Shown piece after piece: positions 33,667 through 47,383 of a stretch of 64,000 bases of DNA. This DNA is from a virus: positions 64,001 to 128,000 of the IMG/VR virus record IMGVR_UViG_3300022555_000010; one strand, 5' to 3'. Within the stretch, counting starts at the first letter, position 1. Each line of letters starts with the position of its first letter. A program made the position numbers and the translations under genes. The notes under the pieces are model-generated. The model did not search any database. It was not told the DNA's origin and saw nothing but the letters and a program-made list of their open reading frames with translations.

Positions 33667-33700
33667 GGGCCTTTAGCTCAGATGGTCAGAGCAGGAAATT
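33667..33700 (+). pseudogene. tRNA 5' half (Ile2/Met-like), truncated at the anticodon loop
   Basis: GGGCCTT TA GCTC AGATGGTCA GAGC A GGAAA TT, then unrelated sequence. Confidence 0.7.
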
Positions 33701-33744
33701 AAATTATACTTGAGGTCGCTCTTACCAATTGATATGCTGTAAGG

Positions 33745-34230
33745 ATGAAAAGAAATGATGCTTTGTTACCGTATGACAATTATTGGATTTACAATCCAGT
33801 TGTAAGTGTGTCTTCAGGAAGAAGAGTTTGTGTTTTAGTTTCAAAGAAGGATGGATGTAAGACAAGTATTAGCTATGCTCGATATTTGATGTCAGTCGCT
33901 ATCGGAAGAATATTGGATTCAAAAGAGTTTGTAGATCATAAAGATGAAGACAAGTTGAATGATGACATCTTGAATTTACAAATATTGTCTCGTGGTGATA
34001 ATAATCGAAAATATAGAATATGTGCTGGGATAAAGCCTGTTAGATTTAAATTTCGATGTCCCAGTTGTAAGTGTGTGTTCGAGAAAGATAAAAGACAGTC
34101 TCATCTTTCAAAAGGAGGAGTTTTTACGGCATGTTCAAGATCTTGTGCTGGAAAAATTCGGGCAATGATGGGTCATGGATTTTTTATTGATGTCTCAGGA
34201 AATGTAATAGGGGAAATCAAGGACCCGTAG
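33745..34230 (+). CDS. HNH homing endonuclease
   Basis: VDHKDEDKLNDDILNLQIL..N, C-terminal CPSC..CSRSC. Confidence 0.8.
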   Translation: MKRNDALLPYDNYWIYNPVVSVSSGRRVCVLVSKKDGCKTSISYARYLMSVAIGRILDSKEFVDHKDEDKLNDDILNLQILSRGDNNRKYRICAGIKPVRFKFRCPSCKCVFEKDKRQSHLSKGGVFTACSRSCAGKIRAMMGHGFFIDVSGNVIGEIKDP

Positions 34231-34297
34231 CTTAATTGGTCAAAGCAGTTCTCTCATAAGGAATTGAGTCTCAGTTCGAGTCTGGGCGGGTCCACCA
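34221..34297 (+). tRNA. tRNA-Ile2/Met (CAT)
   Basis: full cloverleaf, loop CT CAT AA, CCA end. Confidence 0.9.
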
Positions 34298-34342
34298 ATA
34301 TGAAAAAAAGAAGAGACGGATAAGACTTGTCCTATTTGCAGG

Positions 34343-34741
34343 ATGATTCTTGGATTCAAACCCGGTCGCGGGGACAGATGCCAGGAATGTAAAAACACGG
34401 TAGGTGTTGAAGATGCTTATGCCTGGTATAAGATGGAACGTCAGATGGAACTACAGTCGAAGGCTTATGTCTACTTGTTTCCAGCATTGATGATTGTGGC
34501 GATGTTTGAAAGAATCTATGTTTACAAAGGTGGATACACCTTGAGGTCATTCTTGATTTACGACCTTGTTCCCTGGGGATTGTGGGTATTCAATGTATTC
34601 TTCTTATGGCCTGGGAAAGGGGTAAGTATCCCAGGGATGAAGGATAGATTAAAGAGGGCAAAGGATGATTTGTTTTTGAAGAAGTTGGGTGGCGAGCCAG
34701 TTCGTAAAAAAGGTGATTACGATGGGTTCGGGGAGTTGTGA
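34343..34741 (+). CDS. hypothetical membrane protein
   Basis: two hydrophobic segments. Confidence 0.5.
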   Translation: MILGFKPGRGDRCQECKNTVGVEDAYAWYKMERQMELQSKAYVYLFPALMIVAMFERIYVYKGGYTLRSFLIYDLVPWGLWVFNVFFLWPGKGVSIPGMKDRLKRAKDDLFLKKLGGEPVRKKGDYDGFGEL

Positions 34742-34796
34742 TACAGAAGGCATTTCAGGCGTTTTTGTATGGTAATAAAAATAGTTAAAAGATTTG

Positions 34797-34826
34797 TTGC
34801 ATCGCGATTCGCGAATAGCGTATAGT
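34797..34826 (+). promoter_or_regulatory. sigma70-like promoter of the tRNA cluster leader
   Basis: TTGCAT-18-TATAGT, ATG 6 nt downstream. Confidence 0.6.
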
Positions 34827-34832
34827 GAACGC

Positions 34833-34907
34833 ATGAAGACATCGTTGTCATATCTCTATCTGGTGAGTTGCTTATTTAATAGCAACTTCCGTAGGGGTAT
34901 GTCCTGA
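34833..34907 (+). CDS. candidate attenuator leader peptide MKTSLSYLYLVSCLFNSNFRRGMS
   Basis: 24 codons matching downstream tRNA anticodons; followed by terminator. Confidence 0.65.
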   Translation: MKTSLSYLYLVSCLFNSNFRRGMS

Positions 34908-34934
34908 TCTGACTTCATAAAACAGGATGTAGAC

Positions 34935-34973
34935 AAGCCCCACGGAGAGATCCGGAGGGGCTTTTGTGTTTTT
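34935..34973 (+). terminator. intrinsic terminator (candidate attenuator)
   Basis: AAGCCCC-A-CGGA-GAGA-TCCG-GA-GGGGCTT followed by TTGTGTTTTT. Confidence 0.75.
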
Positions 34974-35050
34974 GGGATTTGGGTTTGTCGTGACAGAATG
35001 TCGTGAGAAGTGTCGCGAGATGATATTCGCGAATAGAGAATGAATAGATT

Positions 35051-35127
35051 GGTGGGGTAGCTCAGTCTGGTAGAGCGTCGGCCTGAAGAGCCGAGCGTCG
35101 GGGGTTCAATTCCCTCCCTCACCACCA
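35051..35127 (+). tRNA. tRNA-Phe (GAA)
   Basis: cloverleaf, TCGGC-CTGAAGA-GCCGA, CCA. Confidence 0.95.
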
Positions 35128-35141
35128 AAGTTGAATAGATT

Positions 35142-35227
35142 GCTCGAATGGTGGAATGGCAGACACGTAGCCCTCAGAAGGCTATGGCCGTAAGGTTGTG
35201 GAGGTTCAAGTCCTCTTTCGAGCACCA
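35142..35227 (+). tRNA. tRNA-Leu (CAG)
   Basis: TAGCC-CTCAGAA-GGCTA, long variable arm, CCA. Confidence 0.95.
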
Positions 35228-35306
35228 GTGGATAGGGTGGAATTCCCTCGTGGGTCCGAATCCCACTCCGAGCAATCGGATGGCTGAGTGGTTTAAGGCA
35301 ATCCAC
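35228..35306 (+). ncRNA. minimal circularly permuted tRNA-like RNA
   Basis: GTGGAT/ATCCAC closing stem, V arm, T arm, TCCGA-GCAA-TCGGA closed acceptor, D arm. Confidence 0.7.
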
Positions 35307-35312
35307 AGTTTT

Positions 35313-35349
35313 GGAAGGATGGCAGAGTGGTCTAATGCGGCGGTCTTGA
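35313..35349 (+). pseudogene. 5' half of interrupted tRNA-Ser (TGA)
   Basis: GGAAGGA..GCGGTCTTGA; joins with 35960..36010 into a full tRNA. Confidence 0.9.
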
Positions 35350-35417
35350 TTATTGCAATTAAAAGTTGATAATTCAACTCTTGTAGAGAGTAGTCAATAC
35401 TATAAGGGAGAATTATT

Positions 35418-35879
35418 ATGCCAAGCAGGCTGTATTCGAGGGAAGTTCTTGAGCCGGTTGTTATAAATAGCAGATCTTTTCGAGATTTGACGATAAGGCT
35501 GGGTAAGAAACCACATGGAGGGTTGATAAATCATATAAAAAAGATTGTTGTTGGATTGGGAATAGATTGTTCGCATTTCAATCGTGGGGCTTGGAATAAG
35601 GGAGTGGTTTGGACTGGAAGAAGATCGGCTGAGGAAATTTTTTCGGGAGGAAAGATAGAGCCTGCCTATCGGTTGAAGAGGGCGTTATTAGAGATAGGTC
35701 GTGAGTGGAGTTGCGAGGTTTGTGGAATTAAAGATTGGATGGGGAAAGAAATAGACTTTGAGATTCATCATATTGATGGGGACAAAAAGAATAATACAAT
35801 TGTAAATTTGAGGATTGTTTGTCCTAATTGTCATTCTCAGAGTGGAAATTCAAGATTCAAGGGAAGGAAACATGGCTGA
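35418..35879 (+). CDS. HNH homing endonuclease
   Basis: CEVC..EIHHIDGDKKNN..NLRIVCPNCH. Confidence 0.9.
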   Translation: MPSRLYSREVLEPVVINSRSFRDLTIRLGKKPHGGLINHIKKIVVGLGIDCSHFNRGAWNKGVVWTGRRSAEEIFSGGKIEPAYRLKRALLEIGREWSCEVCGIKDWMGKEIDFEIHHIDGDKKNNTIVNLRIVCPNCHSQSGNSRFKGRKHG

Positions 35880-35954
35880 GTGGTCTAAGGCGGGTGTTTT
35901 GAAAACATCAGATGTTAATAGCATCCGTAGGTTCAAATCCTACTGTTTCCGCCA
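35866..35954 (+). tRNA. tRNA-Ser (TGA)
   Basis: GGAAACA/TGTTTCC-GCCA, loop TT TGA AA. Confidence 0.92.
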
Positions 35955-35959
35955 GTTGA

Positions 35960-36010
35960 AAACCGGAGTACCGAGAGGTATCGGGGGTTCAAATCCCTCT
36001 CCTTCCGCCA
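35960..36010 (+). pseudogene. 3' half of interrupted tRNA-Ser (TGA)
   Basis: AAACCGG, V arm, T arm, TCCTTCC-GCCA complementary to GGAAGGA at 35313. Confidence 0.9.
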
Positions 36011-36013
36011 GTT

Positions 36014-36101
36014 TTTCGAGGATCTTTTCGAGGCATTTAACTCGTTGAGATTCAAATGTTTGTGAGAATTTTCAGTCAAGATTTCGAGGATCTTTTCGAG
36101 G
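36014..36101 (+). repeat. 20-bp direct repeat TTTCGAGGATCTTTTCGAGG x2
   Basis: copies at 36014-36033 and 36082-36101, internally 12-bp periodic. Confidence 0.7.
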
Positions 36102-36211
36102 ATCTGATTGAAGACCTTATCCCTGGTGGATATTGTAATGGCAAATTGACAACTGAATAGTGAATAGCAAGGCGGCTGATCCGGGTTCTTGTACCGGGTC
36201 AGTCGTTGTAT

Positions 36212-36288
36212 GGGCGATTAGCTCAATTGGTCAGAGCGTCTGGTTTACACCCAGAAGGTTATCGGTTCGACCCCGGTATTGCCCACCA
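36212..36288 (+). tRNA. tRNA-Val (TAC)
   Basis: TCTGG-TTTACAC-CCAGA, CCA. Confidence 0.93.
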
Positions 36289-36300
36289 TTTTTTTTATTT

Positions 36301-36328
36301 CCGTATTCTGGGGAAGTTATGGCAATGT
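36301..36328 (+). promoter_or_regulatory. phage promoter-like motif, leaderless
   Basis: ATG 36335 six nt downstream. Confidence 0.75.
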
Positions 36329-36334
36329 GTAGGT

Positions 36335-36616
36335 ATGAACTACTACGATGAAATGAATAAAGTGCCGGAACATCTCAAGGGGATTGCTGATGTCGTTAAG
36401 ACACACACCCATCGAGATGTAAATGAGAAAGAGGCGTCCGAGATTGCCTTCGCACTCTTAGAGCTTGAAGGGAATAAAGTCATAATCAAAAAGATTGCGG
36501 ATTACATTCAGAGTCAGAATCAGCAGTTGCGATGGGCTTACGAGAGACACAACAAGTTCGCCGATGATGTTTTTCAATGGGTTCGCTGGGCGGCTAATTG
36601 GACATTGAGGAAATAA
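36335..36616 (+). CDS. hypothetical protein
   Basis: leaderless start after motif. Confidence 0.55.
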   Translation: MNYYDEMNKVPEHLKGIADVVKTHTHRDVNEKEASEIAFALLELEGNKVIIKKIADYIQSQNQQLRWAYERHNKFADDVFQWVRWAANWTLRK

Positions 36617-36625
36617 GGGAAATAT

Positions 36626-37072
36626 ATGGCACACAAACGCAAAGACACTTTGACGAAGTCTCCGGACTGGTGGAGACATCTTCGGCCTTTCAACAAACGG
36701 AAGGTGGCCAAGGCGGAACGTCGTGCAGCCAGGGCGGAAATCACGGAAGAGGACTATGAGGATGCCAAGGGGCTTGGTCTTCACAAAGAGCCATCGAAGA
36801 TGAGATGGTTGAGGGAGACGGATGGGGATTCGATTATTCCCCAGGGTTGTTACTGTTACGATCAGAAGGGAATTTGTCCTTACTGGGACAAGGCGGAGAA
36901 TAAACAGGAACAGAATAACGGGTATTGCTGGTTTCAGATGAGCGGGGATTGGGACGAGAAGGGCTGTGATCTTCTTTGGGATCAGTGTAAAAACTGCGGG
37001 AAGAACGATGTTGATGTTCCCGAGGGTATAATACAGGTGATAGCAGAGAAAGATGAGGAACCAAAATGTTAG
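36626..37072 (+). CDS. hypothetical Cys-rich protein
   Basis: IPQGCYCY..CPYW..GYC..LLWDQCKNCG. Confidence 0.6.
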   Translation: MAHKRKDTLTKSPDWWRHLRPFNKRKVAKAERRAARAEITEEDYEDAKGLGLHKEPSKMRWLRETDGDSIIPQGCYCYDQKGICPYWDKAENKQEQNNGYCWFQMSGDWDEKGCDLLWDQCKNCGKNDVDVPEGIIQVIAEKDEEPKC

Positions 37073-37341
37073 AAGTTGATTTAAGGAATGCTTTTGAGCC
37101 GGGGAGTAATGCTGACAATTTCTCGGTGTTGTTGCTTCGGTTGATTGCCAAGGCAGACGGGGACAACAAACTGAAGTTAAGTTTGGGTTATCCTGTTCAT
37201 GTGAAGGCAGTTTGGATTTATCAGAATCAGTGTCCGTATCGGGATATGAATCGGAGTGTGGTTGACTGGGCGGCAATCGCAACCCAGGCTTCCGAAGGAA
37301 AGGATTGTGATGAATGTCAAAATCATTTGGAGAGGCTTTAA
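37066..37341 (+). CDS. hypothetical protein
   Basis: GAGGA RBS. Confidence 0.5.
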   Translation: MLEVDLRNAFEPGSNADNFSVLLLRLIAKADGDNKLKLSLGYPVHVKAVWIYQNQCPYRDMNRSVVDWAAIATQASEGKDCDECQNHLERL

Positions 37342-37667
37342 GCCAGGGCATCCCGATAGTGTTGCTTCGTAAGGGTGATTGTCCGGAGGTTATTGGTGAG
37401 CCGGGGAAGGAACCAGAGGCTTTGGATACTTTGGATAAGATGAAGATAGTGAAGTTGACACGACCCCAGGATGGTCGAAAACCGAAGGGTGCGATACAGA
37501 ATTTCTCCGAGAAGCCGGTTCTGACAGATGAGGAACTTCTGGAAGAGTATGGTTGGGAGATGGAATGCTTGAGTCCGTTTGAGTTGAGGCATAAGGATGG
37601 GTCATTCTTATGCGGGAATCAGGCGAAAGATCTATTGAGGCAGTATCGAGAGGATGAGAAGAAATGA
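37314..37667 (+). CDS. hypothetical protein
   Basis: ORF. Confidence 0.5.
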   Translation: MSKSFGEALSQGIPIVLLRKGDCPEVIGEPGKEPEALDTLDKMKIVKLTRPQDGRKPKGAIQNFSEKPVLTDEELLEEYGWEMECLSPFELRHKDGSFLCGNQAKDLLRQYREDEKK

Positions 37668-37669
37668 TT

Positions 37670-37705
37670 CCCCGCATGGTGAAATTGGCAGACACAACGG
37701 ACTTA
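37670..37705 (+). pseudogene. 5' half of tRNA-Leu (TA-), truncated within the anticodon
   Basis: CCCCGCA TG GTG AAATTGGCAGA CAC A ACGGA CT TA. Confidence 0.8.
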
Positions 37706-37765
37706 CAATGCAGTGATGTCTTAATTATTATTTTATAATTCTTATCATAGTAGGGAGATACTACT

Positions 37766-38326
37766 ATGAAAAAGACTGATAATGAGATACGTGAGGCGGT
37801 TGTTGGATCTATTACGTATGCCGGGATTTTGATTAAATTAGGTCTTGTCCCAATGGGGGGAAATTACAAGACAATAAAGAGAAGAATACGAATTCTTGGT
37901 ATTTCGACAGAACATCTTAAGGGGAAGTCATGGAATCGGGGAGGAGTTGGAAAACGAAGTTATGCGAAGAAGTCCTTGGAGAGTGTAATGATAGAAGATT
38001 CTTCGTATTCGACTTTTAAACTCAAGAAGAGATTGTTCAGAGAGGGAATTTTTAAGAAAAAATGCAACAAGTGTGGAGGAGAACAGTGGCTGGGAAAGCC
38101 AATGCCATTAGAATTAGAACATAAAAATGGGAATAGTCACGATCACAGGATAGAGAATTTAGAGATACTTTGTCCCAACTGTCATTCTTTTACGGATACA
38201 TATCGAGGTCGGAAGTCTCGTGGGAAAAAGATTATGAAGGAAGAACGACGATGTTCTAACTGTAATGGTCGGGTGTCGTTAGGGTCGAAATCTGGATTGT
38301 GCTATTTATGTTCTCCAAAGTTTTGA
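37766..38326 (+). CDS. HNH homing endonuclease
   Basis: CNKC..LELEHKNGNSHDHRIENLEILCPNCH; similar to 35418. Confidence 0.9.
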   Translation: MKKTDNEIREAVVGSITYAGILIKLGLVPMGGNYKTIKRRIRILGISTEHLKGKSWNRGGVGKRSYAKKSLESVMIEDSSYSTFKLKKRLFREGIFKKKCNKCGGEQWLGKPMPLELEHKNGNSHDHRIENLEILCPNCHSFTDTYRGRKSRGKKIMKEERRCSNCNGRVSLGSKSGLCYLCSPKF

Positions 38327-38330
38327 AAAT

Positions 38331-38407
38331 GCCGGAGTGGTCCAATTGGCAGAGGCAACAGTTTTAAAAATTGTGTGTTGCGGGTTCGACTCCCGCCTTC
38401 GGCACCA
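38331..38407 (+). tRNA. tRNA-Leu (TAA), short variable loop
   Basis: ACAGT-TTTAAAA-ATTGT, 77 nt, CCA. Confidence 0.85.
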
Positions 38408-38537
38408 AGGAGAAACAAGATGACGGACGAGGAGATCGGACGGAGGTTGTTGAATATTGACGCCATTGCATATTCTCAATGGAGTTATTTGACAAGAACT
38501 TTGGGATGTATTGTGGTTGATGACGAAAGAGACTTTT

Positions 38538-38996
38538 ATGAAATTCAAGATACCGTGTGAGTGGACGGTGAGGACGGTCGAGGTGATCGAAGCCAAAAAT
38601 TTGGTAGATGCACAAGATAAGGCTTTCAAGTTGACTCGACCAAAGACATTGGAAGGCTGCAAGATTGAAGATCCTATTGGTGGGGGTCTGGATTGGAAGA
38701 CATTCAACAAGATGTATCCACCAAAGCCTCCGGCTGATCCGATGGAGGGTTGGACAAGGACAACTGATCCTGGGCCGTATCAGGGCGGGCAATGGGTGAA
38801 GGAGGCGAATGGGTGTGAGGTATTTGTCACCGGGGATACTGGGCCGATAGAGGTCGGGATGGGAATGACAACCTATTCGTGGAGTGTGTCGAAGCCTGGT
38901 CGTAATGACACTCTAACCTCGAAGAAGGATTTCGATAGGATTGAAGAAGCTCGTGATGCGGCATTGAAGGCATCGGAACGATGGAGTAAGATGTGA
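38538..38996 (+). CDS. hypothetical protein
   Basis: ORF. Confidence 0.55.
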   Translation: MKFKIPCEWTVRTVEVIEAKNLVDAQDKAFKLTRPKTLEGCKIEDPIGGGLDWKTFNKMYPPKPPADPMEGWTRTTDPGPYQGGQWVKEANGCEVFVTGDTGPIEVGMGMTTYSWSVSKPGRNDTLTSKKDFDRIEEARDAALKASERWSKM

Positions 38997-39169
38997 AGCC
39001 TGAAGTGATTAAGGGGATCAGGAAGCAGTCTGGGATGACTCAGACGGAGTTTGCAAAGGCGATGAGAGTATCATTCGCGACTGTAAACAGATGGGAGAAA
39101 GGACATTTTGTTCCACTCCCGGACAGACTGGATCGTTTGAAAGAGTTTAAACAAGGAATCGTGAAATGA
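38993..39169 (+). CDS. small XRE/Cro-like HTH regulator (58 aa, not in ORF track)
   Basis: IRKQSGMTQTEFAKAMRVSFATVNRWEKG; GTG start overlapping upstream stop. Confidence 0.75.
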   Translation: MKPEVIKGIRKQSGMTQTEFAKAMRVSFATVNRWEKGHFVPLPDRLDRLKEFKQGIVK

Positions 39170-39537
39170 AAAACAGGTTTGCGGAGATCGCGGAGAGAGT
39201 GGCGGCTAAGTATCAAGACATTGGTCATCAGCCTGGAGATAGACTCTGGTGGGTTGGCAATGATGGTAAGGTCAAGACCTTGGTGTCAACTGGTAAGGAG
39301 TTCCACCACGATATTGACGAGAATATCGATATGGATGCTCGGTGGCGTGGCCGTTTGGAAAAGGGTGGTATGTGTACTCTGTTACCACCGGTGCATCTGT
39401 ATGCGAAGTTCAAGGATGTGGAGGATATGCCTCTCCCGGATTCAGCGATGACGAAGTTGGAGAAACTGGGAGCGAAGCACTTCTATCTGGATACTCAGCG
39501 GGGTATGAATCGGATCAGTAAGACGGTTGTCCGGTGA
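39166..39537 (+). CDS. hypothetical protein
   Basis: coupled ORF. Confidence 0.55.
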   Translation: MKNRFAEIAERVAAKYQDIGHQPGDRLWWVGNDGKVKTLVSTGKEFHHDIDENIDMDARWRGRLEKGGMCTLLPPVHLYAKFKDVEDMPLPDSAMTKLEKLGAKHFYLDTQRGMNRISKTVVR

Positions 39538-39549
39538 ACTGGAGATTTT

Positions 39550-39585
39550 GGAAGAATGCCGTAACTGGTAGCGGGTCTGATTCGA
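39550..39585 (+). pseudogene. 5' half of tRNA-Ser (CGA), truncated after the anticodon
   Basis: GGAAGAA TG CCG TAACTGGTAG CGG G TCTGA TT CGA. Confidence 0.8.
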
Positions 39586-39630
39586 TTGTAATAATTGTTT
39601 GATATTTGCACCTAAAGTGGAGGTGCGAAT

Positions 39631-40479
39631 ATGAATAAGTGCAGATTTTGTGGAAAAGGCGGATTTGAAAAGCGGGGACTTCGAGAACACGAGAAGTATT
39701 GTCGGATAGTTCATCGTTATGTTGATATTGCGAAGGAAGAACTGGAAACAGGATTGTTGCTATGTGAGACGGGATGTGGTCTGCCAGCCAGATTTACATT
39801 GAAAGTTGGAAAGGTTTGTTGTTCTGAGTTTGTTCAGTCTTGCCCGGAGACAAAACGAAAAAACAGCCTTTCAAAGAGTGGTGAGCATAATCCAAGAGGC
39901 ATGTTGGGTAAAAAGACCGGAAGACTCGGAAGGAAGAATGTGGATGTCTTTGGTGTTGTCGTGGCAGGTCGAATAAGTAAAAAGATTTCCAATAGGTTGA
40001 CTGGTAAAGTTACAGGGATGGCATCAACAGTTGGAAATGAGATTGAGAGAGTTCGTAAGATTTCTGATGCGGCAAAAAAGAATACTTACGGAAATTATGG
40101 AGGATACAAGAGGGGAGCAGGAAGAGGGAGACACGGATGGTATAAAGGTATCTGGTTTGACTCTTCCTGGGAATTAGCGTGGATCATATTCAATATTGAT
40201 CACGGGATTCAGTTTGAGAGAAATAGTGATAGGTTTGAATATCAATGGGATGGAAAGACTCATAAGTATCTTCCAGACTTCAAAATGGCTGATGGGAAGT
40301 ATGTAGAAGTTAAATCGTGGTTGAATGACAAGGTGGTTGCAAAATTAAAGGCGTGTCCAGGAGTTCTTGTTTTAATGAAGAAGGAGATGGAGCCGTTTAT
40401 TCAGTATGCAATTAGAAAATATGGTAAAGACTTTGTTAAGGATTTTGAGATTAAAAGGAAGAATGTCCGAACTGGATAA
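39631..40479 (+). CDS. PD-(D/E)XK-type putative homing endonuclease
   Basis: DSSWEL..YLPDF..YVEVK; N-terminal Cys motifs. Confidence 0.75.
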   Translation: MNKCRFCGKGGFEKRGLREHEKYCRIVHRYVDIAKEELETGLLLCETGCGLPARFTLKVGKVCCSEFVQSCPETKRKNSLSKSGEHNPRGMLGKKTGRLGRKNVDVFGVVVAGRISKKISNRLTGKVTGMASTVGNEIERVRKISDAAKKNTYGNYGGYKRGAGRGRHGWYKGIWFDSSWELAWIIFNIDHGIQFERNSDRFEYQWDGKTHKYLPDFKMADGKYVEVKSWLNDKVVAKLKACPGVLVLMKKEMEPFIQYAIRKYGKDFVKDFEIKRKNVRTG

Positions 40480-40544
40480 GGAGTCTGCCTCGAAAGCAGA
40501 TGTACCGAAAGGTATTGGGGGTTCGAGTCCCTCTTCTTCCGCCA
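40457..40544 (+). tRNA. tRNA-Ser (CGA)
   Basis: TCTGC-CTCGAAA-GCAGA, V arm, GCCA. Confidence 0.92.
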
Positions 40545-40747
40545 CACCGAGTGAGATTGTTTATATCAGTAAGGGAGTTTTGTTGAAGGAGATGGCGGAT
40601 CTGGGCATCAATATCAACAGTGTTACGGCTGATGGGATAGTGAGTTCGGCAAAGATGGTGATTGTTGATGGGATTGTGGTGAAGAATCGGGATGGTAAGA
40701 CCGGGGCGAATGTCTCGGGAACGATAGTGGTCGATGATGAGAAAGAT

Positions 40748-40822
40748 TGGCGAGTAGCTCAATGGTAGAGTATCCGGCTGTTAACCGGGTTGTTGGAGGT
40801 TCAAGTCCTCTCTCGCCAGCCA
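40748..40822 (+). tRNA. tRNA-Asn (GTT)
   Basis: TCCGG-CTGTTAA-CCGGG, GCCA. Confidence 0.93.
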
Positions 40823-40828
40823 AATATT

Positions 40829-41152
40829 ATGAAACAAGAACTGATAGATCTATGGCAGCAGATGGCCGATCTGACAAAGGAAAAGTGTCAGAAGTCCTGT
40901 AGGAATATGGGAGCATGTTGCAGTGGAGAATACTGTGAACTCGCCGCCGAGACGATGGAGAAGGCCGGTGAGAAGGTTCCCCCGATGCCTTTCGTAGTGG
41001 ACGGGAAGTGTTCTATTCCTCCTCATTACAGGCCGATATGTGCATTACATCAGTGTGATATTGGCAGTCTTGGGTTTATGAAGGGGGACCCGGACTTGAC
41101 AAAGAGATATTTTGATTTGAGATTCAAGTTGGAAGACTTGGCAGAATTTTAA
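40829..41152 (+). CDS. hypothetical Cys-rich protein
   Basis: C..C..CC..C..RPIC..C cluster. Confidence 0.55.
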   Translation: MKQELIDLWQQMADLTKEKCQKSCRNMGACCSGEYCELAAETMEKAGEKVPPMPFVVDGKCSIPPHYRPICALHQCDIGSLGFMKGDPDLTKRYFDLRFKLEDLAEF

Positions 41153-41315
41153 TTCCGATAGTACCTTCAGCAATGGGATACTTCTAAAAAAACAGGTGCC
41201 CGAAAGGGCGTGAAGGTTCGAGTCCTTCCTCTGTGGCTAATAACTGCGGAGTGGTGGAATTGGCAGACACGCCTGCAAAAAAAGACCCATTGTGATTTTC
41301 GGTATTGTAGGAATT
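41151..41315 (+). ncRNA. YrlA-type Y RNA-like RNA (long terminal stem plus permuted tRNA-Leu-like domain)
   Basis: terminal stems AATTCC/GGAATT, ATAGTACC/GGTATTGT, CAATGGG/CCCATTG; inner order V arm, T arm, closed acceptor, D arm. Confidence 0.75.
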
Positions 41316-41321
41316 TTATTT

Positions 41322-41349
41322 CCGTATTGAGACAAGACATCTGCAATGT
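41322..41349 (+). promoter_or_regulatory. phage promoter-like motif
   Basis: CCGTAT-N15-GCAATGT. Confidence 0.75.
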
Positions 41350-41371
41350 ATGTGCATTAGGAGATGAGATT

Positions 41372-41590
41372 ATGTTGGGACTTAAAAAGAGGGCTGAGGA
41401 TCGTAAACTGGAAAATGATCTATACTTATCTCGTCGTGGGTATGATTACGCGGCCGGGAGATTGTTACGAGGTGGGAATGTCAAGAATCTCTATGAGGAG
41501 GCGGCGAGATGTGATGATCATAGAGAGCCTTTTACGATTGGGGTTTGTGATGCAGTCAGGGACTGGGAGAAGAAAGGGAAAGTGGGATGA
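41372..41590 (+). CDS. hypothetical protein, paralogue of 43484
   Basis: MLGLKKRAE..RRGYD..AG..LRG. Confidence 0.55.
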   Translation: MLGLKKRAEDRKLENDLYLSRRGYDYAAGRLLRGGNVKNLYEEAARCDDHREPFTIGVCDAVRDWEKKGKVG

Positions 41591-42336
41591 AAGTGTTTTT
41601 AACGAGTGGGGGAACAAAGACCCCGATAGACAGTGTCAGGCACGTAGGGAATATGTCAAAGGGGACATTTGGTTGTCATCTCTGTAATGCCTTTTTGAAA
41701 ATGGGGCATACGGTTCACTATTTTTACGCCAAGGACAGTAAGGCACCTCACGATTTCAGGCTGAATCTCAAAGAGGTTGGTTCGAGAGAAGCGATGGAGA
41801 CATTATTGGAGAGCTATGATTTCCTCGATGATTTTGGGGATCGATACATACCAATGGAATATTCTGATTTCAACTCCTATGCAGAAGGTCTGAAAAAGAT
41901 GCTTGGTTCTGGTTTGTTTGATTTGCCGGATGTTGTGGTTTTAGCGGCGGCAGTAAGTGATTATGCCCCGGTAAAGCACGAAGGCAAGATCAGTTCGGAT
42001 CTGGATAAGATGGTCATCGAGTTCGAGAAGACTCCGAAGTTGATCAGGCAGATTCGGGATTTCTGTCCGAAAACATTCCTGGTGGGGTTCAAGTTGCTTG
42101 TTGGAAGCACCCAGGACGAGTTGCTGGAGGCGATGAAGAAGCAGATGAAAGTTGCGAAGACGGATATGGTTGTCGGGAATGACCTGAGGGATATCCGGGC
42201 GGACAAACATTCGTTGACTATTTTGAGGGCAGACGGGGGAATCTCCGGGTTCTCTGGGATGTCGGGTGATAAATTGGCGGAATATCTTGTGGGATCTATT
42301 GATATCTTACAGGGAAGAAAGAAACGGTTGGCATGA
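41587..42336 (+). CDS. coaB: phosphopantothenate-cysteine ligase (CoaB-like)
   Basis: LTSGGT..IDSVR..NMSKGTFG, AAAVSDY, KISS, LVGFKL, VVGND. Confidence 0.85.
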   Translation: MKVFLTSGGTKTPIDSVRHVGNMSKGTFGCHLCNAFLKMGHTVHYFYAKDSKAPHDFRLNLKEVGSREAMETLLESYDFLDDFGDRYIPMEYSDFNSYAEGLKKMLGSGLFDLPDVVVLAAAVSDYAPVKHEGKISSDLDKMVIEFEKTPKLIRQIRDFCPKTFLVGFKLLVGSTQDELLEAMKKQMKVAKTDMVVGNDLRDIRADKHSLTILRADGGISGFSGMSGDKLAEYLVGSIDILQGRKKRLA

Positions 42337-43481
42337 ATATTTTACTTGGATTGACAGGAAGTGTGGCGACAAAGATTGCCCCGAAGATCATTGAGGCTTT
42401 GGAGGCGATTCCGAATTGTTCTGAGGTCAGGGTGATAATGACTGACAAGGCGGCAATGTTTTACAACCCGGAGGCATTGGCCAGGGTTTCAGGGGTCAAG
42501 GTCTACACGGAGGGAGACGAGTGGACCTGGCGGAAGGAAATCAAGGCGATCGGTCATGCTACGGTTCAATGTCTTGCAACAGACAAATGGGAAAAGGGAC
42601 TACCCATTCAGCATATTGAGTTGGTGAAGTGGGCTTCTTGTCTGGTGATTGCTCCGGCGACGGCGAACACGATTGGGAAGATGGCCAATGGGCTGTGTGA
42701 CAATCTGCTGACTTCGGTGTTTACGGCCTGGGATCGGAATCGGCCGGTGATTATGGCACCGGCGATGAACACCATGATGTTACATTCGCCTGCGGTAGTT
42801 CATAATATGGAGACGTTGCAGAAGATGGGTGTTCTGATGGTGCCGACAGTCAAGAAGGAATTGGCTTGTGGGGACACAGGAGATGGGGCCTTGGCAGATG
42901 CCTCGGATATTGCTCGGGTGGCCGCCAGGGAGATTCAGTGGCTATTTCCGTTCAATCTGGTGTCACCGATCAGGGGAATCCCGGTTGGGAGTCACCCAGG
43001 AGCCTTTGGAGCAATGAGGAAGCATGACAGACATTGTGGAGTGGACTTGTATTGCAACAATGGGACGCCGGTTGTTTTGGTTGAAGATGGCCGGGTGGTA
43101 AGCATTGAACCATTCACCGGGAAAGATGCTGGATGTCCTTGGTGGCTGGATACGAAGGTTGTGAAGGTGGAAGGGGCCAGTGGGGTCGTTTGTTACGGAG
43201 AGATTGAGCCTCGGGACTATGTTCAGGTTGGAAAGGTGTATCGGAAGGGGTGTCAGATTGGGAATGTGATCCCGGTGTTGAAGCCGGAGAAGCATCGTCC
43301 GGATATCCCTGGGCATTCGTGTTGTATGCTTCATCTTCAGATGTTCAGTCACGGGACATATAATCTGAAGGATGAGTTCAACAGTCACGAAGAATTGCCG
43401 GACTATATCATTGATCCGACACCGTATCTGTTGGGGGCGGTTGGGGCAAAGGATATTAAGAAGTTGGATGTGAAGGTGTAA
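42333..43481 (+). CDS. coaC: phosphopantothenoylcysteine decarboxylase (CoaC) fused to an M23 peptidase-like domain
   Basis: GLTGSVA, HIEL, APATANT, PAMN, LACGDTGDG; C-terminal HCGVD..MLH. Confidence 0.8.
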   Translation: MNILLGLTGSVATKIAPKIIEALEAIPNCSEVRVIMTDKAAMFYNPEALARVSGVKVYTEGDEWTWRKEIKAIGHATVQCLATDKWEKGLPIQHIELVKWASCLVIAPATANTIGKMANGLCDNLLTSVFTAWDRNRPVIMAPAMNTMMLHSPAVVHNMETLQKMGVLMVPTVKKELACGDTGDGALADASDIARVAAREIQWLFPFNLVSPIRGIPVGSHPGAFGAMRKHDRHCGVDLYCNNGTPVVLVEDGRVVSIEPFTGKDAGCPWWLDTKVVKVEGASGVVCYGEIEPRDYVQVGKVYRKGCQIGNVIPVLKPEKHRPDIPGHSCCMLHLQMFSHGTYNLKDEFNSHEELPDYIIDPTPYLLGAVGAKDIKKLDVKV

Positions 43482-43483
43482 CA

Positions 43484-43699
43484 ATGTTTGGATTTAAGAA
43501 AAGAGCCGAGGCAAAGAGGCACGAAGAGAACCCGAGTCCTAGGAGGAGAGGATATGATTCTATCGCAGGGGGAATATTGAGGGGTTGGAATATTGATTCA
43601 CACATTGATAATTTTATGTTGGAGGGACCGGGAAGTGTTGAGGATGGCGAGGAAGAGGCGATAAGGGATTGGATGAAAATGAGAGGATTTAAACAATGA
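43484..43699 (+). CDS. hypothetical protein, paralogue of 41372
   Basis: MFGFKKRAE..RRGYD..AG..LRG. Confidence 0.55.
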   Translation: MFGFKKRAEAKRHEENPSPRRRGYDSIAGGILRGWNIDSHIDNFMLEGPGSVEDGEEEAIRDWMKMRGFKQ

Positions 43700-43828
43700 G
43701 AAAGTCTACAGCGAGTCCAAAGAGTACGAAGATCAAGAATGGTTGCACTCGGACGAAGAGGAGTTCAGGGTGTGTCGGGTCGGCAATTGCTCGGACTCGT
43801 GAACGAAGGAAGTGTCGGTAAGTATTTT

Positions 43829-43858
43829 GACGGGTTAGCCAAGTGGTTAGGCAGGTCT
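43829..43858 (+). pseudogene. 5' half of a tRNA-Cys-like gene, truncated at the anticodon loop
   Basis: GACGGGT TA GCC AAGTGGTTA GGC A GGTCT; same layout as the downstream Cys tRNA. Confidence 0.7.
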
Positions 43859-43915
43859 TGAAAAAGCATTGACTTGACAGGCCAGTAATAGCATTATTCA
43901 GGGAATGGAGGTGCT

Positions 43916-44629
43916 ATGAAAAAGAACGAAGAAATTAAAATCAAGGCAAGAGATTTGAGGTCGCTCGGATTATCTGTTGGAGATATTTCAAAAAAACTTT
44001 CAGTCTCTTATGGCTCAGTTGGTAACTGGGTTCGTGACATTATTCTGGACGAAGAACAGAAGAAGAATATCTCAAATATTCGTCAAAAGGAAGTTCAGCG
44101 TGTTTTCGATCTTCCCTTAGAGATTTTTGATAAAATGATTGAAGACGGCTTAAGCCAGAAAATGATTGCTGATAAATTGGGAGTATCTTTGGGAATAATG
44201 AGTCGAGTGTTCAAATCGAAGGGGCTATCAGGAAGAACGCCTAAAGGTCAGAGACCCGTATTTGGTTTGAGCGATTGTAAGATTTGTGGAGTTCCCAGAA
44301 AAACATGGCGAGGAGGAACTTGTCCTACTTGTGTGTCGAAAATTAGACGTTTAAAAACGAAGATTAGGGCAGTAAAGGAGTTGGGTGGGAAATGTAAAAG
44401 TTGTTCGTGGGAACCAACAAGTCGTGAGGTTGCGGCGATGGAATTCCATCATAAAGGTGGAGATAAAAAAGAATTTGAGATAGGTAAGAAGATGAATCAT
44501 AAGTGGGAAACTTTACTTCCAGAAATCAGGAAGTGTAAATTGTTGTGTTCTCGATGTCACAGGATTGAGCACAGTCGAGTAGATCCATTGTTTGATTTTA
44601 TATTTGATCAAGATGATAAGATGCGATGA
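43916..44629 (+). CDS. HTH plus HNH homing endonuclease
   Basis: two HTH-like segments; CKSC..MEFHH..KEF..CKLLCSRCH. Confidence 0.8.
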   Translation: MKKNEEIKIKARDLRSLGLSVGDISKKLSVSYGSVGNWVRDIILDEEQKKNISNIRQKEVQRVFDLPLEIFDKMIEDGLSQKMIADKLGVSLGIMSRVFKSKGLSGRTPKGQRPVFGLSDCKICGVPRKTWRGGTCPTCVSKIRRLKTKIRAVKELGGKCKSCSWEPTSREVAAMEFHHKGGDKKEFEIGKKMNHKWETLLPEIRKCKLLCSRCHRIEHSRVDPLFDFIFDQDDKMR

Positions 44630-44693
44630 CCGAGAGGTTAGGTGGTTCTCTGCAAAAGAACATAGGCTGGTTCGAGTCCAGTTCGCATCTCCA
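44620..44693 (+). tRNA. tRNA-Cys (GCA)
   Basis: GTTCT-CTGCAAA-AGAAC, TCCA end. Confidence 0.93.
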
Positions 44694-44702
44694 AAATTTT
44701 TC

Positions 44703-44789
44703 GGGGAGTTAGCCAAGCGGCAACGGCGGCAGACTGTAAATCTGTTTCTCTAACGAGGTTCAAAGGTTCGAGTCCTTTACTCCCCACCA
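44703..44789 (+). tRNA. tRNA-Tyr (GTA)
   Basis: GCAGA-CTGTAAA-TCTGT, V arm, CCA. Confidence 0.93.
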
Positions 44790-44827
44790 ATTATTAGTGA
44801 TCAGTAATATATCGGTGAACAGTAATA

Positions 44828-45073
44828 ATGAGCAGAAGGATCAGATACACCAAGCAGAGAGCCTTATTGGGATCTTTGATTACAAGGGATGGTCTAAAAT
44901 GTCACTGGTGTCATAGGGAATGTGACCCGAAGGCTAATAATGGAAGTCCTGGATATCCGACCGTGGAGCATCTGAAGAGGCAATGTGAGGGTGGAACGGA
45001 TGACCCGGTGAATCTGGTGGTGGCTTGTTTGAAGTGTAATAGTGGGAGACATTTGCCTGGGTGGACTCCGTGA
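44828..45073 (+). CDS. small HNH endonuclease
   Basis: RDG..CHWC..TVEHL..GGTDD..NLVVACLKCN. Confidence 0.8.
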   Translation: MSRRIRYTKQRALLGSLITRDGLKCHWCHRECDPKANNGSPGYPTVEHLKRQCEGGTDDPVNLVVACLKCNSGRHLPGWTP

Positions 45074-45293
45074 TTGATGGAGTGGTCAATGGATTGATTC
45101 AGGAAGCGTCCTACCCGGATTGCAGTTATTGGCAGTTGCATATTTGTGGATGTGGGCAGGCTTCGGTTCGGCATCTTGTTGAGGGAGATCACAAGGGCTG
45201 GATCATGGGATGTAATTGTCGGACCGGGCTGGATTTGTTGGGATGGTTGCCGATAGGAGTTGTCCCGGCAGTGGATGAGGTAGATGAGTCGTT

Positions 45294-45383
45294 GGAAGGA
45301 TGGCAGAGTGGTAATGCAGCGGTTTGCTAAACCGTACAAGGTGTAAAAGTCTTGCGTGAGTTCAAGTCTCACTCCTTCCGCCA
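45294..45383 (+). tRNA. tRNA-Ser (GCT)
   Basis: GCGGT-TTGCTAA-ACCGT, V arm, GCCA. Confidence 0.93.
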
Positions 45384-45415
45384 AAATGTGTTTGGGGTGG
45401 AACCCTGATATAACG

Positions 45416-45539
45416 GTCCGTGATGCTGAAAGCTGAAGCGGGTAGCTGTTGATTGCTTCCAAAGCGACACAGAAAGTCGGTTGACTGTAGTGCGAGGTCA
45501 GCCTTTTAAATAGGCAGTAAAAACCTGCATCGGACGCCA
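45416..45539 (+). ncRNA. structured tRNA-like ncRNA candidate ending in GCCA
   Basis: GTCCG..CGGAC-GCCA terminal stem, hairpin with TTCCAAA loop, GGTTGAC/GTCAGCC hairpin. Confidence 0.4.
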
Positions 45540-45547
45540 ATTATCTT

Positions 45548-45575
45548 CCGTATTCTGTGGTACAATCTGCAATGT
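45548..45575 (+). promoter_or_regulatory. phage promoter-like motif, leaderless
   Basis: ATG 45582 six nt downstream. Confidence 0.75.
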
Positions 45576-45581
45576 CTTTAT

Positions 45582-45752
45582 ATGAAACTCCCAAACTACT
45601 TCTTAGATGATTGCTGTAAGAAGAAGCCGGGAGTCGAGTGGGATGGTGGGGAGATCACGGCTAAGTGCCGCAAGTGTGGGGACTTGGTCACAAATCGAGA
45701 GATGTGGAAATTGATGATTGCCTGGAATAAGAAAAAAAGAGGGTTGAAATGA
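45582..45752 (+). CDS. 56-aa Cys-containing leaderless ORF (not in ORF track)
   Basis: MKLPNYFLDDCC..CRKC..AWN; ATGA overlap with next gene. Confidence 0.55.
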   Translation: MKLPNYFLDDCCKKKPGVEWDGGEITAKCRKCGDLVTNREMWKLMIAWNKKKRGLK

Positions 45753-46117
45753 AGGACCAATCGGACTGGATATCGTTGATGAATGACAATGCTTTCATCT
45801 CTCTTGCAGATGTTAAGAAATGGTTGAATATTGGAACGGCCTGGCAAATGAGGAGATTGGTTGAGTATCAGTCGTTTCCGATGCCGGCATATGGGACTTC
45901 TCAAACGGCCAGGATGTCTCGGGGATGTCGGTGGAGAGTCGGAGATATCAGGGAATGGTTGAAGACGGGTAAATGTGTGAATGGTTGTGCTGAGATGTCA
46001 GAAAGACTTACGACCAGGATTGCGTCGGCTGAACGCAGAAGGTTGAACGGGAATCGGATTGCGAAGATTTACAGGGATTTGGATAGTAAGGGGTTAAAGC
46101 TTGGCGATAGGCCTTAA
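45749..46117 (+). CDS. AlpA/excisionase-like DNA-binding protein
   Basis: SLADV..FPMP..RWRVGDIREWL. Confidence 0.55.
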   Translation: MKDQSDWISLMNDNAFISLADVKKWLNIGTAWQMRRLVEYQSFPMPAYGTSQTARMSRGCRWRVGDIREWLKTGKCVNGCAEMSERLTTRIASAERRRLNGNRIAKIYRDLDSKGLKLGDRP

Positions 46118-46127
46118 GGGATAATTT

Positions 46128-46322
46128 ATGAAAGCGTATGGAGTTCCTCGGATTTGTGATGCTGAGTATTGTGACAAGGCGGATATCAAGAAGTACGGCA
46201 GGGCGACCGTGGATCGGTGTTCTCGGGCGGACAGGGGTAAGAACACGGCTCGTCGTATCTGGGCTAAAAAGGCTCGTCGTGATGGTAAAAAGGAAACGAT
46301 TCTTTCCGTATCGGCAGCCTAA
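46128..46322 (+). CDS. small basic hypothetical protein
   Basis: MKAYG..KKARR. Confidence 0.5.
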   Translation: MKAYGVPRICDAEYCDKADIKKYGRATVDRCSRADRGKNTARRIWAKKARRDGKKETILSVSAA

Positions 46323-46333
46323 TTCGGCAATGT
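46306..46333 (+). promoter_or_regulatory. phage promoter-like motif, leaderless
   Basis: ATG 46340 six nt downstream. Confidence 0.75.
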
Positions 46334-46339
46334 ATAGGT

Positions 46340-46597
46340 ATGAAAATGACAATACAAGGACAGGTTAAGGAATGTGCGGTCGCGATTCTGTATGCAAACC
46401 GTGGCAAACTGGGTGGAATCAACTTCCGGTACAATCTGAATCATTTTGGTGAGGCGATGCGTAAACACATGGCAGGGATCAAAGAGGAAGGTCTTGCGGT
46501 TCCCCAGGCGACTCTCAAGCTCGTGGCACGGGCTGAGAAGGTCTTGAATGAAGAATGTGACGGTAAGGATTGTTCATTTCAGAAGGTGGCAGTATGA
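46340..46597 (+). CDS. hypothetical protein
   Basis: leaderless start. Confidence 0.55.
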   Translation: MKMTIQGQVKECAVAILYANRGKLGGINFRYNLNHFGEAMRKHMAGIKEEGLAVPQATLKLVARAEKVLNEECDGKDCSFQKVAV

Positions 46598-47019: not shown

Positions 47020-47059
47020 ACAATCTCGGGGATGTTCCGGGAGTGTATAATGTGACTTG

Positions 47060-47342
47060 GGAAAGAGACGAGCGTTCGCTTTGATGAGTCCGATAAATCA
47101 TGGCTGCGAGTGTGAGTCTGGCACAAGCGGGGGCAATTAGAAGTTCCTGGGTTATCCCCAAAGGTGGTTCAGGACAATAGACCAATGGCTATGAAGAATG
47201 AGAGTATATGTTCAAAAGACATATATAGCCATACCGTGCGAGAAGCGTCAGTCTGATAAACGGCATCTTTAGTCGGTGAACCGTGGCGTTGAAATAATAC
47301 GTCAGCAAAAAGGACAGTGGAAAACCCACCTCGTCTCTTTCC
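47060..47342 (+). ncRNA. ~283-nt structured ncRNA candidate
   Basis: perfect 13-bp closing stem, internal hairpins, upstream TATAAT, downstream T tract. Confidence 0.65.
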
Positions 47343-47383
47343 TTTTCTGTTTTCGTTTTTATGATATTGTGGGTGAGTAGATT

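Follow-up and report, generated by a model that had tools for sequence, protein, structure and literature searches.

A 64,000-nucleotide (nt) stretch of viral DNA (the window; bases 64001–128000 of the 151.8-kb IMG/VR virus record IMGVR_UViG_3300022555_000010, completeness estimate 72%) carries an array of transfer RNA (tRNA) genes in which the same order of elements was found five times: a tRNA 5′ fragment, an AT-rich spacer of 45–68 nt, an endonuclease open reading frame (ORF) and a complete tRNA gene. We interpret these five cassettes (c1–c5, with nucleases H1–H5) as free-standing homing endonuclease genes, each tightly linked to a replacement tRNA that its own nuclease probably cannot cut and acquired via double-strand-break repair; we place the probability of this reading at about 0.75. 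Homing endonucleases are thought either to need an intron or intein for harmless entry into essential genes or to stay intergenic. The cassettes would represent a third way, in which the gene is destroyed and a working, probably nuclease-uncuttable, copy is brought along. Such a splice-free route into an RNA gene, in which the phage would keep the tRNA concerned, is apparently unpublished, and a full-text literature search found no paper on an arrangement of stub, nuclease and replacement tRNA. An earlier note made from the DNA letters alone had listed the five arrangements, all of which were recovered where it had placed them, and had proposed a splicing-free homing strategy; the comparative evidence described below supports that proposal, with cleavage and resistance of the replacement tRNA still standing as predictions.

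The tRNA fragments, in each case the 5′ part of the gene, end within anticodon-loop positions 33–36 in all five cassettes (Table 1). The stop codon of the nuclease ORF lies inside the downstream tRNA by 10, 14, 23 and 10 nt in c1, c2, c4 and c5, respectively, and 4 nt ahead of it in c3. ARAGORN predicted 16 tRNA genes within 34221–49682, all 16 of which were confirmed by Rfam at 45–68 bits. For the stubs, an nhmmer profile of tRNA 5′ halves overlooked those of the window itself and blastn-short, run on whole loci, lacked sensitivity; each nuclease's upstream region was therefore aligned locally with a library of 571 distinct tRNA 5′ halves from 84 phage loci, using 150 random tRNA-free 150-nt stretches as a control (95th percentile of the score 25, 99th percentile 30). 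Scores for c1–c5 were 39, 49, 45, 31 and 32, and the best library matches were Met-CAT, Ser-TGA, Leu-TAA, Ser and, for c5, a D-arm only. The score threshold is conservative, as it missed a stub in contig L114 (see below). The anticodon is readable in three stubs, once in part (TGA in c2, CGA in c4 and TA in c3), as the earlier note had claimed, and the anticodon stem of each replacement tRNA differs from that of its stub.

The nuclease ORFs have a G+C content (GC) of 35–40.5%, compared with a median of 47% and a 5th percentile of 40.3% for the long frames of the window, and the GC of the spacers is 27–43%. Sigma-70-like matches on the + strand occur in four of the five spacers; they come from a consensus scan that is confounded by AT-richness. 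No group I or group II intron was matched at 30000–52000 with E values up to 5, the cassette nucleases lie outside any intron or intein in that interval, and there is no room for a ribozyme because the spacers measure 45–68 nt and each ORF ends next to or inside its tRNA. For these reasons, and in view of exons that could not be joined (the c2 insert holds a whole tRNA gene), we rejected a group I intron for the window. An archaeal-type split tRNA was rejected as well, since the stretch before the c2 3′ half, which is the 3′ end of the replacement tRNA, is by eye not complementary to the spacer. Each insert contains one nuclease ORF, and no recombinase domain was found among the Pfam and PHROG matches of the inserts; together with the 5′ nature of the remnant, this led us to reject an integrase-borne island. 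A search for native 3′ halves found none in c1, c3, c4 and c5 and a matching one in c2, which the earlier note had overlooked in describing c2 as a 5′ half only. Other features beyond that note are the ORF ends within tRNAs, tRNA debris at 35228–35312 (with a weak 3′-half match at 35241–35273), a sixth HNH gene at 44828–45073 and the kinship of H2 and H3.

Table 1. Components of the five cassettes and associated tRNA debris, in window coordinates.
Feature	Position	Strand	Details
c1 5′ stub, native tRNA-Met	33667..33699	+	acceptor strand, D-arm and anticodon-stem 5′ strand; break at about 33/34
c1 spacer, AT-rich	33700..33744	+	GC 0.36; overlapping promoter-like match 33683-33710
H1 HNH endonuclease, 161 amino acids (aa)	33745..34230	+	TAG stop formed by positions 8-10 of next tRNA
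c1 replacement tRNA-Met(CAT)	34221..34297	+	ARAGORN; Rfam 65.2 bits
Older tRNA debris	35228..35312	+	Leu-like 3′ fragment, then Ser/Leu-like 5′ fragment; read from sequence
c2 5′ half, native tRNA-Ser(TGA)	35313..35349	+	ends CTTGA; library match over all 37 positions
c2 spacer	35350..35417	+	GC 0.27; 6-base-pair hairpin; promoter-like matches 35346-35373, 35391-35419
H2 HNH endonuclease, 153 aa	35418..35879	+	stop 14 nt into next tRNA
c2 replacement tRNA-Ser(TGA)	35866..35954	+	ARAGORN; Rfam 55.5 bits
c2 3′ half, native tRNA-Ser(TGA)	35956..36010	+	from loop TTGA to CCA; nhmmer 3′-half match, E 2.8 × 10−4
c3 5′ stub, native tRNA-Leu(TAA)	37670..37705	+	ends CTTA; library score 45 to Leu-TAA half
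c3 spacer, AT-rich	37706..37765	+	GC 0.27; promoter-like match 37702-37731
H3 HNH endonuclease, 186 aa	37766..38326	+	H2 family; ends 4 nt ahead of tRNA
c3 replacement tRNA-Leu(TAA), 77 nt	38331..38407	+	ARAGORN; Rfam 51.8 bits
c4 5′ stub, tRNA-Ser(CGA)	39550..39585	+	ends TTCGA; library score 31
c4 spacer	39586..39630	+	GC 0.33
H4 PD-(D/E)XK-like endonuclease, 282 aa	39631..40479	+	Cys-rich N-terminal fingers; stop 23 nt into tRNA
c4 replacement tRNA-Ser(CGA)	40457..40544	+	ARAGORN; Rfam 53.1 bits
c5 5′ stub, native tRNA-Cys	43829..43859	+	break directly ahead of anticodon; library score 32
c5 spacer	43860..43915	+	promoter-like match 43869-43897 (TTGACT, 17 nt, CATTAT)
H5 helix-turn-helix (HTH) and HNH endonuclease, 237 aa	43916..44629	+	stop 10 nt into tRNA
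c5 replacement tRNA-Cys(GCA)	44620..44693	+	ARAGORN; Rfam 53.4 bits

By sequence, the five nucleases fall into four families, three of them HNH-type, with H2 and H3 in one family. The unrelated nuclease families of the earlier note thus come down to these four. H1, H2, H3 and H5 match HNH models in Pfam or PHROGs, a homing-endonuclease family: H1 (GC 0.35) matches Pfam HNH_3 (E=1 × 10−5) and phrog_14913 (E=7 × 10−28), H2 matches Pfam HNH (E=2 × 10−6) and phrog_10822 (E=2 × 10−37), H3 matches phrog_10822 (E=2 × 10−45), and H5, which combines N-terminal helix-turn-helix motifs with an HNH domain, matches phrog_2255 (E=3 × 10−17) and, weakly, Pfam HTH models. H3 is 29% identical to H2 in the family alignment and 31–33% identical to the H2 homologues of contigs L001–L004 (tblastn). 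H4 gave weak Pfam and PHROG endonuclease/resolvase matches; among 12 aligned homologues, E181 and P215-D216 never vary and E226 and K228 hardly do, a PD-(D/E)XK pattern, and the H4 profile matched T7 endonuclease I with an E value of 5.6 × 10−4. An AlphaFold model of H4 (predicted local distance difference test score, 72) returned weak Foldseek matches, nearly all of the PD-(D/E)XK type (Bax1, TnsA, a Cas4-family protein and influenza PA-N); none of the Foldseek matches, those to the PDB included, reached an E value of 0.001 or better.

A homologue of H2 (P0002, 69% identity) led to contig L001, whose tRNA array is syntenic with that of the window. The earlier note had proposed that empty alleles be sought in relatives, and L001 provides them at three sites: where the window has stubs, the native tRNA-Met, tRNA-Leu(UAA) and tRNA-Cys of L001 are intact and directly follow the homologues of the ORFs upstream of the stubs, with orthology of the sites fixed by protein comparison. 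The ORF before the c3 stub (37314–37667) corresponds to L001 12551–12883, behind which an intact 84-nt tRNA-Leu(TAA) begins within 3 nt; the ORF at 43696–43821, 8 nt before the c5 stub, corresponds to L001 15174–15302, which is followed by an intact tRNA-Cys(GCA); and the ORF after the window tRNA-Met (34343–34741) corresponds to L001 8869–9246, which is preceded by an intact tRNA-Met. In c1, the homology between the window and L001 restarts directly past the CCA end. H1, H3, H4 and H5 are sporadic, being absent from the otherwise syntenic L001 locus, and the Ser(UGA) cassette is common to both genomes. The start of the ORF after the window tRNA-Met (34300–34345) is disturbed relative to L001 by a run of seven A residues and a shifted frame, its conserved Cys-rich N-terminus being in frame only from 34322; either an error of sequencing or a true frameshift may lie behind this.

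Comparison of the tRNAs themselves pointed in the same direction. The c1 stub is identical to the native tRNA-Met of L001 at 29 of 33 positions (88%) and to the full tRNA-Met of the window at 22 of 32 (69%), and the c5 stub matches the tRNA-Cys(GCA) of L001 at 26 of 36. The c4 stub is identical at 30 of 35 positions (86%) to the 5′ half of its own replacement, the acceptor strand being the same. Ten pairs of backbone tRNAs of the window and L001 are 69–84% identical, whereas the replacement tRNAs are only 60% (Met), 62% (Leu(TAA)), 65% (Ser(CGA)) and 62% (Cys) identical to the L001 isoacceptors, below all ten backbone pairs. These four replacement tRNAs are best taken as non-orthologous to those of L001, and the cassettes as foreign to the genome, because the replacement tRNAs are more diverged than the backbone and the nuclease ORFs are low in GC. 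The replacement tRNA at 38331–38407, with anticodon TAA and discriminator A73, is without the long variable arm usual for bacterial tRNA-Leu, and its nearest library relatives are Thr and Asn tRNAs.

The Ser(TGA) cassette was found in three lineages. In the window, in L001 and in a third contig, L119, a native Ser(TGA) gene is split at one and the same loop position by an HNH gene and a tRNA; L119 was the sole return of a pattern scan of metagenome contigs for the c2 overlap of ORF and tRNA. In the window, the 3′ half stands directly behind the replacement tRNA, TTGA is present at both junctions and the acceptor strand GGAAGGA of the stub pairs with TCCTTCC of the 3′ half. L001 has the layout of the window (debris, 5′ half, hairpin spacer, HNH, tRNA-Ser(TGA) and 3′ half), with the spacer hairpin and its flanks kept. 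The 18-nt hairpin, used as a query, returned 19 viral loci, none with a nuclease, which were discarded as chance matches. L119, whose surrounding genes differ from those of the window, contains a 5′ half ending in CTTG, an HNH protein 58% identical to H2, a related tRNA-Ser(TGA) and a partial 3′ half without the anticodon-stem strand. The dead halves pair in all three lineages, with A-T (window), C-G (L001) and G-C (L119) at 7:66. The window and L001 have different variable-arm stems, which pair in both, and an identical T-arm. The cassette tRNA-Ser(TGA) is 87% identical between the window and L001, the highest value of all their tRNA pairs. On the simplest reading, HNH gene and tRNA would have entered different native Ser(TGA) genes as a unit. 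An alternative for the window and L001 is a single old insertion kept with selection on the halves, because the cassettes of the two are about as diverged as their backbones. The debris at 35228–35312 matches in position L001 9777–9880, between tRNA-Leu(CAG) and the Ser stub, and being common to both it stems from earlier events shared by the two lineages.

A profile search of viral contigs with the H2/H3 family gave 80 loci. In 35 of 84 HNH ORFs of this family, a count that takes in the two ORFs of the window and that of L001, an ARAGORN tRNA starts at most 40 nt from the stop and in many cases overlaps it. The majority of the family's HNH genes lack a stub; wherever a stub and an adjacent tRNA occur together the anticodons agree (c2, c3, L001 Ser-TGA, L078 Val-TAC and L103 Arg-CCT), so that the anticodon rule put forward for the window carries over to the survey of this family. 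The family also extends to cultured phages: gene 149 of Gordonia phage GodonK encodes an HNH protein and overlaps tRNA-Glu, and the HNH gene mistaenkt_113 of Escherichia phage mistaenkt lies 1 nt ahead of tRNA-Leu. In three contigs (L025, L035 and L039), an HNH gene of the family lies inside a group I intron of tRNA-Leu(UAA), between U34 and A35, with both exons present and complementary; the Rfam model Intron_gpI scored 35.7 bits in L039 (E=2.6 × 10−7), and 25.1 and 19.9 bits in the other two contigs, where the ORF splits the ribozyme. The c3 stub ends exactly at this intron position. The occurrence of one HNH family in such introns as well fits the contrast between splicing and replacement drawn in the earlier note. 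A tree of 39 family members shows 25 changes of tRNA identity, compared with at least 26 in 300 shuffles, which indicates partners kept over short distances and switched over long ones.

Homologues of the other nucleases were likewise found next to tRNAs. The H4 homologue P0098 precedes tRNA-Ser(GGA) with Ser debris in L104 and L105, in L114 a tRNA starts 8 nt after the H1 homologue P0108, and the H5 homologue P0112 (37% identical) lies 2 nt before tRNA-Cys(GCA) in L118.

Several further arrangements were seen on the surveyed contigs. L114 contains an apparent nested invasion at 2021–2994, where a first HNH_3 gene stops inside a tRNA 5′ stub, followed by a promoter-like spacer, a second HNH_3 gene and a tRNA with anticodon TAT. 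In L094, an HNH ORF splits tRNA-Lys(TTT) into complementary halves (3529–3560 and 4196–4245) with no adjacent replacement tRNA, and three tRNA matches of 117–134 nt at 5634–6020 of the same contig may be tRNAs with inserts. In a tRNA-Leu(UAA) of L064 (3612–3741), CTT and AAAA of the anticodon loop are separated by an insert of ~50 nt; this insert, located ~70 nt upstream of an H2/H3-family HNH gene, has its own T-arm-like hairpin and resembles a tRNA-shaped mini-insert. Transfer-messenger RNA (tmRNA) genes are present on two cassette-bearing contigs, L103 (4288–4631) and L025 (470–893; Rfam 68 and 73.6 bits, respectively), that of L103 directly behind the replacement tRNA-Arg(CCT). In the window itself, a sixth endonuclease insertion (44828–45330) without a stub and with unremarkable GC lies between tRNA-Tyr and tRNA-Ser(GCT), where L001 has a 5-nt spacer only; it consists of an HNH ORF of 81 aa (44828–45073) and an overlapping 89-aa ORF without a family match, whose stop lies within tRNA-Ser(GCT) (45294–45383).

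The mechanism that we propose treats the AT-rich spacer, probably with its own promoter, the nuclease ORF and the tRNA as one unit. The first bases of the tRNA would provide the last codons and the stop of the ORF in four of the five cassettes, and this overlap would make nuclease and tRNA hard to part by recombination. In a genome without the cassette, the nuclease would cut the native tRNA gene of matching anticodon at a site within or beside the anticodon loop, and the break would be repaired using a cassette-bearing genome. At the left end, the broken 5′ half would be retained and fused to the spacer, first entry proceeding by one-sided, microhomology-type repair; in later rounds the stub in the donor could serve as a homology arm. 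At the right end, repair would run through the cassette tRNA into the tRNA 3′ end or the downstream flank, or in c2 end at the 3′ half, and would thereby remove the native 3′ half in c1, c3, c4 and c5 and retain it in c2. Decoding would be maintained by the same-anticodon cassette tRNA, whose different anticodon stem probably confers immunity. We infer all of this, from cleavage and its site to replacement-tRNA resistance, repair pathway and promoter use, from sequence comparison and from what is established for intronless homing (PMC2330249, PMC2988022).

Several observations weigh against this homing interpretation. The activity and cut site of the five proteins and the resistance of the replacement tRNAs are themselves predictions, and the loss of the 3′ half in four of five cassettes needs an added assumption on resection or recombination. 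L001 is rearranged at the c4 locus, which leaves c4 without a strict empty allele, and the c4 stub is close to its replacement (86%); the assignment of the c5 stub to Cys derives from synteny, its library match covering the D-arm only. HNH phylogeny and tRNA identity are only modestly linked (25 changes; minimum of the shuffles, 26). The Ser(TGA) HNH protein is 69% identical between the window and L001 at the amino-acid level, compared with 35–66% for its neighbours, and that cassette may therefore be old and vertically inherited. Finally, the contigs listed among the 23 with the identical H1 protein show no visible difference in layout and no contig of the phage joins across a cassette, so that the population gives no sign of cassette polymorphism or ongoing mobility.

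Other explanations were weighed against the same data. A SegB-like nuclease could have amplified a unit of tRNA and nuclease locally, partial deletion then leaving a fragment, in which case stub and full tRNA would be old paralogues. SegB-driven tandem repeats of tRNA-Tyr and segB with microhomology junctions are documented (PMC13096335), and the resemblance of the c4 stub to its full tRNA, with the same acceptor strand, would suit such a history. It would, however, leave unexplained why the native tRNAs of L001 are nuclease-free at three sites, why the c1 stub is far closer to the L001 native tRNA than to the adjacent full tRNA, why the replacement tRNAs are further from the L001 isoacceptors than any backbone pair and why the nucleases are compositionally foreign, and we consider it unlikely. 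If anything slightly less credible is the idea that the stubs are 5′ exons of decayed intron-containing tRNA genes that have lost ribozyme and 3′ exon, the full tRNA being an array neighbour rather than cargo. That group I introns with H2/H3-family members interrupt tRNA-Leu(UAA) at this loop position, which is where c3 is broken, speaks for it; the window, in contrast, gives no ribozyme match and the spacers leave no room for one, the next tRNA has the anticodon of the stub in every readable case, the ORF stops inside that tRNA in four of five cassettes, and HNH gene and Ser tRNA travel jointly in three lineages.

The pairing of the Ser(UGA) halves, kept in three lineages with a different 7:66 pair in each and with variable-arm stems that differ between the window and L001 yet pair beside an identical T-arm, raises the question of whether at least this split tRNA is functional, the insert being removed as RNA, or whether the halves are selected for another role. 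Independent homing into native genes that had already diverged would account for the compensated pairs with no selection on the halves, and a split tRNA still in use would have to be reconciled with four cassettes without any 3′ half, with the lack of a ribozyme, complementary leader or bulge-helix-bulge, with an insert that contains an ORF and a whole tRNA, and with the 3′ half of L119, which has no anticodon-stem strand; we judge it very improbable. That the arrangement reflects chance adjacency in the fragment-rich and nuclease-rich tRNA arrays of large phages is scarcely credible: tRNA debris without an adjacent nuclease does exist (35228–35312 in the window; near 15035–15110 in L001), and the majority of H2/H3-family HNH genes are stub-less, but all five cassette nucleases have a stub 45–68 nt upstream with scores expected in ~1–2% of 150-nt stretches, the stubs all end inside one set of four loop positions, and there is agreement between the anticodons.

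Among known systems, SegB of phages T4 and T6 is the nearest described one, being likewise a free-standing nuclease gene in a phage tRNA array (PMC2330249, PMC13096335). SegB cleaves tRNA genes and drives the inheritance of T4's tRNA region (PMC2330249); its targets are the tRNA genes of relatives without segB, the tRNA genes next to it are inherited along with it, and nucleases of its type are widely associated with tRNAs (PMC2330249, PMC13096335). It differs from the cassettes in that SegB is a GIY-YIG enzyme recognizing the T-psi-C stem-loop, while the cassette nucleases are HNH or PD-(D/E)XK-like with breakpoints in the anticodon loop, and descriptions of SegB contain no broken stub, same-anticodon replacement tRNA or ORF stop inside a tRNA. 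In T4 homing with one exon missing, double-strand breaks undergo one-sided illegitimate repair (PMC2988022), which provides a tested route, with microhomology junctions, into a site with one-sided homology; it was shown with engineered td-intron substrates and serves for the cassettes as an analogy only.

Group I introns with homing endonucleases in the anticodon loop of tRNA genes from bacteria and phages share the insertion position of the cassettes (PMC3984707). Intron-encoded tRNA endonucleases also resemble the cassette enzymes in kind, since the H2/H3 HNH family occurs in L025, L035 and L039 and both HNH and PD-(D/E)XK enzymes are used. Examples are the tRNA-Leu(UAA) intron and, for PD-(D/E)XK, the enzyme I-Ssp6803I in a cyanobacterial tRNA-fMet intron. 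In contrast to such introns, the window is without a ribozyme, and function would be restored by a second complete tRNA gene rather than by splicing. Free-standing endonuclease genes of fungal and algal organelles, for which partial duplications have been noted (PMC5626475), similarly cut, insert at the end of a gene and bring a substitute, with a dead remnant beside the element. Their targets are protein genes with in-frame C-terminal replacement, whereas the cassettes concern whole RNA genes in a phage and leave a 5′ part. An endonuclease insertion in atp6 of Allomyces, for instance, is said to have brought a duplicate of the displaced gene part. Integrase-borne islands and prophages enter tRNA genes by integration, and a copy that the element brings along makes the gene whole again. 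The cassettes resemble them in using a tRNA gene as target and in preserving a functional tRNA through the sequence of the element; the islands, however, involve a tyrosine recombinase, att repeats, a duplicated 3′ part and reversibility, where the cassettes have a nuclease, a whole tRNA and a 5′ stub.

The presence of five cases and four nuclease families in one genome, together with an HNH family that exists in both intron and cassette form, makes the relation between the two strategies testable. The pattern would explain tRNA-fragment-rich phage arrays, unexpectedly divergent isoacceptors among related phages and the many annotated HNH genes that overlap tRNA genes. For annotation, it follows that the stubs should be marked as pseudogenes and that overlaps between ORF and tRNA are real. 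The cassettes would also be a source of natural nucleases, presumably with specificity for tRNA-gene sequences, and could serve as a natural model for gene drives of the replacement type. More tentatively, and with some doubt on our part, the cassettes might represent a distinct and widespread selfish class in which an obligately linked nuclease and immune tRNA act as a 'cut-and-replace' drive on RNA genes. Several nuclease families would have converged on this form, at least one of them being interconvertible with intron-encoded tRNA endonucleases; the broken halves would act as portable homology arms between phages without shared flanks, and the process could be a main engine of tRNA turnover in large phages. 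In its strongest form, this possibility would have the paired Ser(UGA) halves kept by selection.

The phage of the window, which is uncultured and whose large ORFs all lie on the + strand with a strong GC skew, recurs in freshwater and lake metagenomes from several studies. An identical H1 protein was present in 23 contigs read, from many samples, with the same gene layout among the contigs listed. The cassettes were reproduced in contigs of four sequencing runs from four studies (two hold most of the stretch), and no cassette-free form of the phage was seen in them. No RNA run is listed among the sequencing runs that contain the stretch. Many apparent joints at 35328–35982 in contigs of the sequencing runs were rejected because they belong to other organisms' intact tRNA-Ser genes. 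No relatives came from scanning viral contigs with one protein at a time (the flanking glycosyltransferase, CoaB, H1 and H5), and megablast of the region against the phage collection gave a single 63-nt match and nothing else.

Within the tRNA array, the window also encodes a CoaB-like (DFP) and a CoaC-like (Flavoprotein) gene at 41587–43481, the latter with an additional weak M23 peptidase match; coenzyme A biosynthesis genes are an unusual cargo for phages. Outside the array, a 127-nt tRNA-like gene at 13549–13675 (Rfam tRNA, 34.7 bits; fold z-score, −4.1) has a normal acceptor stem, D-arm and T-arm, with a 3-base-pair mini-hairpin and an extra arm of ~60 nt in place of the usual anticodon and variable region.

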